From Roseibium suaedae (GTDB lineage Bacteria; Pseudomonadota; Alphaproteobacteria; Rhizobiales; Stappiaceae), in NCBI RefSeq assembly GCF_900142725.1, contig NZ_FRBW01000002.1, positions 624,710-648,709 of the forward strand: a stretch of 24,000 nt of DNA, given 5' to 3'. Position 1 is the stretch's first letter. Each line of letters starts with the position of its first letter. A program made the position numbers and the translations under genes. A model generated the notes under the pieces. That model was not told the DNA's origin. It did no database searches and saw only the letters and a list, made by a program, of their open reading frames with translations. Positions 6,920 to 8,743 of this stretch are shown here, in pieces.

Positions 6920-7594
6920 TTAACTGGACTTCAGGTCTGAAATCACGGTCTTGGCCGAGCTGCCTGCCGTTGTGCTGACCGTTCCGAAGACGGTCACAGC
7001 CTGTGTCACCATGTTCTGGATGTCCTCCATGAAGGGGATCTCCTTGATCGTGGAAGCGGGCTGAGGACCTTCTGCGGCCTTCTTGATGGCGACGGCCTGG
7101 GCTGCGACGGCGATCTGCATGATCGCATTCATGTAGTTCTTTGCATCCTGCACGGCCATCCCCGCTGTTTGACTGACCATGATCTCCGGCGGCGTGATCG
7201 CAATGTTATCCGCGTAATTGCTGGTCTCCGTGTTGGAGAACTGCACCGCCTGGACGACCTGCTGATTGAGCGCGGAGACGTTGGGCGTGGGAGCCTTTGC
7301 CGCCAGGGCGGCTCGGGTGTTTCCCGGCGTCTGGGCGGTTTTCTGGGGCAGGGTTGCAGCGGCCTGCTTCTGGTCGCCTGTGCGGGCAGCATTCCCTGCC
7401 CCTGCCCCTGCTTGTGCACCAGCCTGACCTGCCCCCAGACCAGAGCCCGGAGCGGTACCGGGAGCAGAACCAAGACCGGCAGCCTGTGCAGCCGCTGCCG
7501 CAGAGGCTTTGGGAGCCGTCCCGTCAGCTGCGGTCTTGCCGTCATCTCCGGCACCGGGCGCGGAACGCGCGCCAAACCAGCCACTCAATCCCAT
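6920..7594 (-). CDS. Reb-like protein: about 105-aa Ala/Gly/Pro/Gln-rich N-terminal region plus a divergent RebB-like core
   Basis: ATG 7594 with AAGGAG 7 nt upstream. Residues about 106-175 (VSALNQQVVQAVQFSNTE...AGMAVQDAKNYMNAIMQIAVAAQAVAIKKA) line up with the VN-x-ITDAVTQ-N...NAV..QQ pattern of the two small Reb ORFs. The similarity is weak and judged by eye only. Confidence 0.55.
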   Translation of the reverse strand: MGLSGWFGARSAPGAGDDGKTAADGTAPKASAAAAAQAAGLGSAPGTAPGSGLGAGQAGAQAGAGAGNAARTGDQKQAAATLPQKTAQTPGNTRAALAAKAPTPNVSALNQQVVQAVQFSNTETSNYADNIAITPPEIMVSQTAGMAVQDAKNYMNAIMQIAVAAQAVAIKKAAEGPQPASTIKEIPFMEDIQNMVTQAVTVFGTVSTTAGSSAKTVISDLKSS

Positions 7595-7681
7595 GGTCCG
7601 TCTCCTTGTGACATTGCCGGGACACATTCATCCCGATGACGACCGGCTAAAAGACAACATGCCTTCTCGCCGAAATTGAAG

Positions 7682-7906
7682 TTACTCGCCGATATCCATG
7701 ATCAGCTGGCAGGCCTTGGACACGACCGCAGTCGTGATCTGGTTCATCGCCTGCTGACTGTGCACGGCATTCTGGATGGAGAGGCCGGAGGCGTGGCTTG
7801 CGACCTGATAGAGCGCTGCGATTGCCTGTGCCGGCGCCTCGGCCACCACCTTGACGTTGGTCTGGGTGACAGCATCCGTAATCTGGGAATTGACGTTATC
7901 GGCCAT
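7682..7906 (-). CDS. rebB: RebB-family R-body ('killing trait') protein, paralog 2 (74 aa)
   Basis: From the internal ATG at 7906: MADNVNSQITDAVTQTNVKVVAEAPAQAIAALYQVASHASGLSIQNAVHSQQAMNQ..., a strong match to the RebB signature and to paralog 1. AGGA lies upstream. The longer track ORF (to 7981) adds an implausible Arg/Cys-rich N-terminus. Confidence 0.8.
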   Translation of the reverse strand: MADNVNSQITDAVTQTNVKVVAEAPAQAIAALYQVASHASGLSIQNAVHSQQAMNQITTAVVSKACQLIMDIGE

Positions 7907-8011
7907 GGTTTCGTCCTGTCCTGTTCGCAGCCGGGTGCACATCCGGCAGAGGGAAGCGGAAGGGACAGGGCTCCAACGCACTCATGCACCTGTCCGCCAC
8001 TCATGGACGCT

Positions 8012-8743
8012 TCAGCCCGCTGCGCGTGACAGGCGCTTCAAACTTTTTTCCGGCATGCAGCTCTCAGGGAGGCGGCAGCCTTCCCCCTCCCCCAGCGCTT
8101 GCCGCAACCTTTCCCGCAGGTGCTGAACCCGTTTGCGGGCAAGAGGCTCGGAAATCTCCAGCTGCTCCGCAATCACCCTGTAGCTTTGCTCCTCGCAGAA
8201 CCTCAGCCTGAACACCTTGCGCAGTTCCGGCGGCAAGGCATTCACCACATGAACCACCGCCCGAAGCGTATCCTGGTGCCGCAGCAGGTTCTCCTGATCC
8301 GGCTGGTTGCTGGACAGGGAACTCTCATGATCGACATAGATATCCGCCCCGAAGTCCCGGACCTGCCGTTCCGACTGCACCCGGCGCATGCGGGAGATAT
8401 GCTCGTTCTTCATGGCGAAGAGCAGAAAGGCGCGTGGTTCCCGGATTTCGGTCTCGTGCCTCTCCACATGAGCGACCGCCTTCACCAGTGTCGAAGACAA
8501 CAAGTCCTCTGCATCCTCCCGGTTGCCGCGGGTCAGGCGAAGCGCCCTGCGTTTCAGCACCACGGCATCTTCGATCCAGCTCATCCAGATCCCAGCGGCA
8601 GACGCCAGAGCGCCATTTTCCGGTTCGTCCCTGTTGGTCACGAAGCCCTCCCGGTCCCCTAAACATGCCTTGTTTTCAATAGCTGAGAAGACGCGGGCCT
8701 CTTCGCGATGTGAATAAATTCTTGGACCAGCAAGACGCATCAT
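8012..8743 (-). CDS. ECF-type RNA polymerase sigma-70 family factor
   Basis: Region 2-like LKRRALRLTRGNREDAEDLLSSTLVKAVAHV...EPRAFLLFAMKNEHISRMRR. Region 4-like LPPELRKVFRLRFCEEQSYRVIAEQLEISEPLARKRVQHLRERL. I chose start 8743 for its strong GGAGGTG RBS. ATG 8584 would give a more typical 190-aa ECF but has a weak RBS. Confidence 0.8.
   Translation of the reverse strand: MMRLAGPRIYSHREEARVFSAIENKACLGDREGFVTNRDEPENGALASAAGIWMSWIEDAVVLKRRALRLTRGNREDAEDLLSSTLVKAVAHVERHETEIREPRAFLLFAMKNEHISRMRRVQSERQVRDFGADIYVDHESSLSSNQPDQENLLRHQDTLRAVVHVVNALPPELRKVFRLRFCEEQSYRVIAEQLEISEPLARKRVQHLRERLRQALGEGEGCRLPESCMPEKSLKRLSRAAG

Follow-up and report, generated by a model that had tools for sequence, protein, structure and literature searches.

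The 24,000-nucleotide (nt) stretch of the Roseibium suaedae genome analysed here (contig NZ_FRBW01000002.1, positions 624,710 to 648,709; hereafter the window) encodes an extracytoplasmic function (ECF) sigma factor together with several genes of the reb type, the type that underlies R-bodies. R-bodies are pH-driven protein actuators, of interest both for host-microbe killing and for biotechnology, and the switching-on of their genes is poorly understood outside Pseudomonas aeruginosa PA14. Judged from its sequence, the window very likely carries the R. suaedae version of the Group 2 reb system, arranged as a small regulon of a dedicated sigma factor of the FecI2 family.

An earlier note on this DNA had described a minimal, two-gene R-body cassette next to a sigma gene, confined to positions 6920-8743. 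The three co-oriented minus-strand open reading frames (ORFs) that it listed were all verified: a sigma ORF at 8743-8012 (243 amino acids from ATG), a 74-amino-acid ORF at 7906-7682 and a 224-amino-acid ORF at 7594-6920, separated by gaps of 105 and 87 nt. Both the sigma factor and the 224-amino-acid protein find R. suaedae proteins that match them at 100%. The idea of a minimal cassette had to be abandoned, since the 74-amino-acid protein is of the short RebD type and the 224-amino-acid protein is a RapA homolog, not a canonical Reb. Neither is the unit complete or self-contained: the gene for the probable major subunit, of RebP type, is located 5.6 kilobases (kb) away on the opposite strand, and two further cluster genes with the same promoter motif are found at 3660-3932 and 4018-4581. 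The protein-coding genes on which the argument rests are the following:

8012-8641, minus strand: FecI2-type ECF sigma factor, probable coding sequence of 209 amino acids from GTG (Pfam, FecI2 homology; start from alignment and Shine-Dalgarno sequence)
7682-7906, minus strand: RebD-type (group 3) RebB-family protein, 74 amino acids (Pfam RebB; 76% identity to P. aeruginosa P0235)
6920-7594, minus strand: RapA homolog (secondary Reb group S4), 224 amino acids (40% identity to P. aeruginosa RapA)
1031-1351, plus strand: RebP-type (group 2) RebB-family protein, 106 amino acids (Pfam RebB; identity to RebP1)
3660-3932, plus strand: orfS, 90 amino acids, likely counterpart of the small gene after rapA in other Roseibium reb clusters
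4018-4581, plus strand: orfX, 187 amino acids, ortholog of the gene that directly precedes rebP in all other reb clusters of the Stappiaceae

The sigma factor and a shared promoter motif

The sigma ORF matched the Pfam models Sigma70_r2 (1.1e-7) and Sigma70_r4_2 (2.4e-10), which confirms the earlier call of an ECF sigma factor; region 3 is absent, and the NCBIfam model sigma70-ECF TIGR02937 was matched at 9e-18. It is 34% identical to FecI2 of P. aeruginosa (E = 2e-23), where the gene order is the same, and the proposed link to the sigma factor of the PA14 cluster is thereby supported. The genes of the P. aeruginosa locus used for comparison (L081) were named rcgA, fecI2, rebD, rapA, rebP1 and rebP2 from the order, sizes and domains given in PMC8322103 and not by locus tags. 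With regions 2 and 4 only, homology to FecI2 and a position beside RebB genes, the protein can be reported as FecI2-type. An ECF sigma factor with a reb neighbourhood has been published as ECF237 (PMC7826278), and use of that label here would rest on the published neighbourhood descriptions.

The true start of the sigma gene is probably GTG 8641 and not ATG 8743, the start used in the earlier note. We place it there because homologs are about 200 amino acids long and their alignment to the window protein begins at residue V35, because the GTG is preceded by a GGGAGGG Shine-Dalgarno sequence, and because a promoter motif (P_sig, below) that falls within the supposed N-terminus is located outside the ORF in most relatives. 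The public (NCBI) 243-amino-acid model would accordingly be 34 codons too long (8642-8743, minus strand).

Alignment of upstream regions revealed a TCAC...CGTC pair that is invariant upstream of both rebP and rebD across the Stappiaceae, the two tetramers being 16 nt apart (17 nt in the window and two other loci). In the form TCACR-N14/15-GCGTC the motif has four matches in the window against 0.22 expected, a number reached in none of 100 shuffles, and all four are located upstream of reb-associated genes. These candidate promoters are:

8690-8713, minus strand: P_sig, TCACA-N14-GCGTC, before the sigma gene and inside the N-terminal extension of the 243-amino-acid model
8006-8029, minus strand: P_rebD, TCACG-N14-GCGTC, before rebD, the -35 element falling within the final codons of the sigma gene and the stop codon of that gene (8014-8012) within the spacer
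3602-3625, plus strand: P_S, TCACA-N14-GCGTC, before orfS-orfX
951-975, plus strand: P_rebP, TCACA-N15-GCGTC, with its start 80 nt ahead of the rebP ATG

The positions of these sites are conserved as well as their sequence. In most Stappiaceae loci the equivalent of P_sig lies outside the ORF, 57-85 nt before the sigma start, and all 30 Stappiaceae sequences have a rebP motif that begins 75-83 nt before the gene. In about 29 of 31 Stappiaceae loci, as well as in P. aeruginosa (L081:7900), the rebD motif and the 3' end of the sigma gene overlap, and a match to P_S is present at the collinear place in Roseibium litorale (locus L001, minus strand, 11668). When all loci are counted (80 loci from a scan of one genome per species, their genes assigned with hidden Markov models (HMMs) built from our own alignments), the motif precedes RebD in 73 of 76 and RebP in 71 of 74. 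In the beta- and gammaproteobacterial loci, 69 of 75 upstream regions carry TCAC-N16-CGTT, in which the spacing is unchanged. Exactly three sites occur in 16 kb of P. aeruginosa: before rcgA, within the 3' end of fecI2 before rebD, and one that starts 76 nt before rebP1. Dozens of loci from alpha-, beta- and gammaproteobacteria have the motif at these positions, which backs the earlier suggestion that reb expression is gated by the sigma factor. We infer that the sigma factor recognises the motif promoters directly, and P_sig (8713-8690) is proposed to be the autoregulatory promoter of its own gene. Alternative sigma factors of P. aeruginosa, FecI2 included, are autoregulated (PMC4362757). No promoter motif of its own was found before the rapA homolog, and rebD and rapA are therefore probably co-transcribed as one unit. 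Three looser matches in the window (10938, 12509 and 18175) have deviant -35/-10 bases and were treated as chance; the first two are located inside coding regions.

None of the ORFs adjoining the sigma gene, which encode an AT3-SGNH acyltransferase and the reb proteins, contains an anti-sigma domain, in agreement with the earlier note. Homologs of RcgA, the Crp-type regulator of the PA14 cluster, occur in beta- and gammaproteobacterial loci only and are absent from the window and from all alphaproteobacterial loci. The loci L039-L081 (Pseudomonas, Lysobacter, Burkholderia, Chromobacterium, Dyella and Azoarcus) use TCAC-N16-CGTT and all have an rcgA gene, and the alphaproteobacterial loci, Luteimonas and Xanthomonas sp. 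GPE 39 combine GCGTC with the absence of RcgA. This suggests two regulatory subtypes of one system.

Encoded proteins and neighbouring genes

The assignment of the 74-amino-acid protein to the RebB family was borne out by a match to Pfam RebB (PF11747) at E = 1.5e-26 and 92.7 bits, against a cut-off of 24. It has 548 homologs, and all of the best 120 of these carry PF11747. P0235, the P. aeruginosa RebB-family protein to which it is 76% identical, is encoded between fecI2 and rapA in L081, that is, in the rebD position. The RebD proteins of R. suaedae and R. litorale (L001 5427-5651) are 100% identical in amino acid sequence with synonymous sites near saturation (dS about 1), and identity over three proteobacterial classes is 76-95%, an unusually strong constraint for a 74-amino-acid "accessory" protein. 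RebD was not detected in R-body preparations of PA14 (PMC8322103), and the RebD of Caedibacter is a minor component guiding assembly (bioRxiv 10.64898/2026.05.21.725848).

The protein encoded at 1031-1351 matches Pfam RebB at E = 1.6e-28 and is 79% identical (E = 2e-55) to the first of two adjacent 106-amino-acid RebB-family proteins of P. aeruginosa, which is taken as RebP1. R-bodies of PA14 depend on rebP1P2 (PMC8322103), and by analogy this protein is the probable major ribbon subunit. A rebC-like gene was not found in the window, as the earlier note had stated, and proteins of the RebA/B clade are also absent. Downstream of rebP the following element was found:

1378-1406, plus strand: stem-loop after rebP (folding energy compared with shuffles)

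The region 1352-1420 folds with -33.6 kcal/mol (z = -5.7), a value matched by none of 200 shuffles, and the stem-loop is probably a terminator. It has no T-run and is followed by an AT-rich stretch, which is unusual in a genome of 60% GC. Upstream of the gene, about 20 nt before its Shine-Dalgarno sequence, a short GC-rich hairpin in the 5' untranslated region (994-1012, plus strand, with equivalents in loci L002-L031) is kept across the Stappiaceae. Compensatory changes were seen in three of its five pairs, and its energy in the window is no better than that of shuffles (z = -0.06).

The 224-amino-acid protein had been called Reb-like. It does not match Pfam RebB, even at E<=10, and neither do 20 of its relatives; it has no Pfam match of any kind, and BLASTP against the two RebB proteins of the window was not significant. 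As a canonical Reb it is thus rejected. It is 40% identical over 118 amino acids (E = 4e-23) to RapA of P. aeruginosa, and a RapA-family protein directly follows rebD in 75 of 80 loci. Residues 1-100 form a variable, low-complexity region rich in Ala, Gly, Gln and Pro, and residues 101-224 a conserved domain of about 120 amino acids that is predicted to be all-helical. When the family was compared with RebB by hhalign, residues 109-164 aligned onto RebB 5-60 (56 columns, E = 1.3e-4, with a probability of only 53%) in register with the RebB core. Only 102 relatives came out of a profile search that covered 1.84 billion representatives. Some of them are bridging proteins: P0281, for example, was found at E = 8e-10 by the profile of the 224-amino-acid family and passes the Pfam RebB cut-off at 27.8 bits. 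A 2026 survey places RapA in secondary Reb group S4 and describes its N-terminal region as extended (BMC Genomics 2026, PMC13430693). The remote profile match and this classification leave the term Reb-like valid only in a weak sense, and from its sequence the protein is best regarded as a homolog of RapA (PA14_27680) that is only remotely Reb-like. In PA14, RapA, RebP1 and RebP2 co-purify in the fraction insoluble in sodium dodecyl sulfate (SDS), and RapA co-localises with RebP1 (PMC8322103).

In other Stappiaceae, orfS and orfX usually stand between rapA and rebP; in the window they are displaced and are preceded by a separate copy of the sigma promoter motif. Each of 31 loci has a single member of the orfX family (HMM E = 5e-62), which has no Pfam or NCBIfam match. 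A 181-amino-acid protein of the P. aeruginosa cluster was considered as its counterpart and ruled out, as the two are unrelated. A hairpin followed by a T-run is present after orfX at 4667-4686. The C-terminus of orfS is, by eye, conserved as ..E(E/Q)LL..L..ILGR. Similar Leu-rich ends were noticed, also by eye, in RebP (..LTSLLTVLNAF, 1320-1348), in a third, shortened Reb (..LKTLLASLKS, 1750-1778) and in orfS (..ELLTVLNQILGR, 3890-3925), and an HMM test of orfS was not significant. The third Reb is the following ORF:

1575-1781, plus strand: apparently truncated third Reb, ORF of 68 amino acids, corresponding to the C-terminal half of a divergent Reb paralog and found in the syntenic place

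It matches positions 68-118 of the divergent-Reb HMM (20.2 bits, E = 1.3e-7 with five candidates), and the third Reb elsewhere in Roseibium is located between rebP and the UPF0176 gene. A sigma-70-like pair of hexamers is present upstream of the 68-amino-acid ORF at 1434-1461.

The surroundings are of the housekeeping kind, as noted earlier: pgi, a UPF0176/rhodanese gene, a gluconolactonase-like gene, the AT3-SGNH acyltransferase gene, ilvIH, a serA-like gene, pdxJ and a transfer RNA (tRNA) gene were found in the flanks. The last of these was the sole match in an Rfam scan of the window:

11221-11293, minus strand: tRNA gene, between the acyltransferase gene and ilvI

A generic scan of the window for sigma-70 promoters and terminators was uninformative. 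Three tandem paralogous genes on the plus strand (4906-5175, 5219-5488 and 5612-5899) encode glycine-zipper proteins of 89-95 amino acids, the first of which also matches a lipoprotein lipid-attachment site. A conserved 221-amino-acid protein without a Pfam or NCBIfam match is encoded at 2871-3536 (plus strand), after the UPF0176/rhodanese gene, in all Roseibium loci examined.

Conservation, rearrangement and alternative explanations

The order sigma factor, short RebB protein, RapA-family protein on one strand was found in 75 of the 80 loci, which span the Stappiaceae, Pseudovibrio, Luteimonas, Xanthomonas, Lysobacter, Dyella, Burkholderia, Chromobacterium, Azoarcus and Pseudomonas. Downstream of this triad there are between one and three genes of the RebP type. 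The layout in other Roseibium is sigma-RebD-RapA-orfS-orfZ-orfX-RebP-third Reb, followed by the UPF0176 gene. In the window, the triad adjoins the gluconolactonase-like gene and the reb-associated genes are scattered over 8 kb. Despite this rearrangement, selection acts on the genes that have been retained. Ratios of nonsynonymous to synonymous substitution rates (dN/dS), computed against R. litorale at a dS of about 1, or against Roseibium algae for RebP, were 0 for RebD, 0.056 for the sigma factor, 0.08 for RebP, 0.10 for orfX and 0.39 for orfS. The RapA homolog gave 0.069 as a whole, 0.02 for the C-terminal domain and 0.17 for the N-terminal region.

Carrying over the protein roles known from PA14 and Caedibacter, the regulon may work as follows. 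The FecI2-type sigma factor would amplify its own expression via P_sig and turn on four transcription units. The promoter straddling the sigma stop codon would drive rebD and, by read-through, the rapA homolog, with further promoters serving orfS-orfX (3660-4581) and the RebP-type gene (1031-1351). RebP would polymerise into a coiled ribbon; the RapA homolog, with its remotely Reb-like helical core and a putatively disordered N-terminus, may be incorporated into the ribbon or coat it, and RebD may be a minor component or assembly guide, as reported for its Caedibacter namesake. Because neither an anti-sigma factor nor a co-activator of the RcgA type is encoded nearby, we infer that the switch is an autoregulatory loop. 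From this feedback architecture it may be supposed that the loop fires in a minority of cells, as in PA14, where reb firing was seen in 0.26% of cells (PMC8322103). A more far-reaching speculation, which we offer only tentatively and consider more doubtful than probable, is that the alphaproteobacterial branch as a whole uses a sigma-only switch, with one promoter before the sigma gene and one in its last codons, that gives bistable, all-or-none firing of the dispersed genes in rare cells, and that the motif, not operon linkage, kept the genes co-regulated through rearrangement.

Several observations weigh against a functional Group 2 system in R. suaedae, or against parts of the scheme above. 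FecI2 by itself is insufficient in PA14, where RcgA is needed, and the window has no RcgA homolog. The gap between TCACA and GCGTC in the window rebP promoter is 15 nt and not 14. The cluster is split and partly inverted relative to other Roseibium, R. litorale being collinear as far as L001 reaches. The gene orfZ (about 170-230 amino acids), which is found between orfS and orfX in most Stappiaceae clusters (at about 6400-7350 in L002-L031), is absent from the 24-kb window and from L001. The ORF at 1575-1781 appears to be a truncated remnant of the third Reb that lacks the first Reb helix. R-body formation may be impaired because of this rearrangement, the absence of orfZ from the window and the reduction of the third Reb. 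HMMER support for orfS outside R. litorale is weak (E = 2e-3 to 0.09), which makes its assignment a weak one. The AlphaFold2 model of the conserved RapA domain is all-helical and of low confidence (predicted local distance difference test score, pLDDT, of 57), and a search with the RebB profile against PDB sequences found no relative among solved R-body subunits.

The split cluster, with part of it inverted, orfZ not in the window and the third Reb cut to its C-terminal half, could indicate a decaying remnant whose genes are still expressed but no longer yield functional R-bodies. We consider this unlikely: the retained genes have been under strong purifying selection (dN/dS 0-0.10) since R. 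suaedae diverged from R. litorale, whose layout is rearranged in the same way, the four promoter motifs are intact, and PA14 makes R-bodies with no homologs of orfX and orfZ. A use of the Reb-like proteins of this sigma group for a purpose other than R-bodies, as suggested for ECF237 neighbourhoods (PMC7826278), would fit the lack of a RebC homolog and the stronger virulence defects of PA14 rapA and rcgA mutants than of rebP1P2 mutants, which imply R-body-independent roles (PMC8322103). Since PA14 forms rebP1P2-dependent R-bodies from the same type of cluster, and R-bodies were seen by transmission electron microscopy (TEM) in the congener Labrenzia (Roseibium) alexandrii (hereafter L. alexandrii), which has an orthologous cluster, this explanation has in our view little probability.

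The least probable explanation, to which we give hardly any credence, is that 6920-8743 is a compact and self-sufficient module in which the sigma factor and the two adjacent Reb-like genes are enough for R-bodies. The tight spacing and common orientation of the three genes, the presence of one true RebB-family gene and the conservation of the triad as the strongest unit (75 of 80 loci) speak for it. The 74-amino-acid protein is, however, of the RebD type, undetected in the PA14 preparations and not the major subunit in Caedibacter, nearly every related locus also has RebP-type genes, and a gene of RebP type under the same motif is present in the window itself (951-1351). A Group 2 reb system in the form of a sigma regulon is thus the explanation we prefer.

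Comparison with known systems

The closest well-studied relative is the PA14 reb cluster (Wang et al. 2021, PMC8322103), with the order rcgA-fecI2-rebD-rapA-...-rebP1-rebP2 in L081. The order sigma-rebD-rapA is as in the window, all four protein families are homologous, and the promoter layout is shared: a first motif falls within the 3' end of the sigma gene, and a second starts about 76-80 nt ahead of rebP. In PA14, PrebP1 requires both FecI2 and RcgA (PMC8322103), whereas the window has no RcgA and the -10 element is GCGTC and not CGTT. The motif associated with the sigma gene is located directly upstream of that gene in the window but upstream of rcgA in PA14. Instead of rebP1 and rebP2, there is a single RebP gene, displaced by 5.6 kb and on the opposite strand. 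The third helix region in the C-terminal part of RapA is conserved only among the alphaproteobacterial, Luteimonas and Xanthomonas members, unlike in PA14.

In the synteny pattern that Raymann et al. (2013, PMC3583457) named Group 2, Rebs are associated with unannotated proteins of about 205-220 amino acids and often with a sigma factor, HP2.3. The window resembles it in that it encodes the sigma factor and, at about 220 amino acids, a protein of RapA type, which is likened to HP2.1/HP2.2 by description, and differs in that the regulator HP2.4, which binds cyclic nucleoside monophosphates and is of the RcgA type, is absent. In the classification of PMC13430693, the RebP, RebD and RapA homolog of the window fit the Reb groups 2, 3 and S4, respectively. 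The rebABCD genes of Caedibacter taeniospiralis (type 51) form a plasmid-borne operon that includes RebC and has no sigma factor dedicated to it, and the window lacks RebC; the two systems share RebB-family subunits and a short paralog of the RebD type.

In L. alexandrii DFL-11, of the same genus, R-bodies were seen by TEM and the reb cluster is flanked by an ECF sigma factor (Fiebig et al. 2013, PMC3764935). The description of an ECF sigma factor, a Reb of 76 amino acids, four hypothetical genes and Rebs of 109 and 122 amino acids fits the layout of related Roseibium. R. suaedae departs from it in the relocation of orfS-orfX and rebP, in the truncation of the third Reb and in the lack of orfZ within the window.

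Systems of this kind are already known: for this genus, reb genes with an adjacent ECF sigma gene and the presence of R-bodies have both been described. The earlier note overrated its novelty, as such an arrangement had been published before (PMC3764935, PMC3583457, PMC7826278, PMC8322103), and the locus adds no new kind of system. In the literature searched we did not find described a shared promoter motif or a sigma autoregulation site for reb clusters, nor the rebD promoter over the sigma stop codon, the correction of the sigma start or the split layout of R. suaedae. The promoter consensus across three classes, the placement of the rebD promoter, the start correction and the split layout are incremental additions to these known systems. 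What is gained is a concrete and testable consensus for promoters of the FecI2/ECF237 sigma family that is shared between Pseudomonas and Roseibium, a revised start for the sigma gene, and a natural split variant without RcgA, orfZ and an intact third Reb, which could show which of the accessory genes are dispensable.

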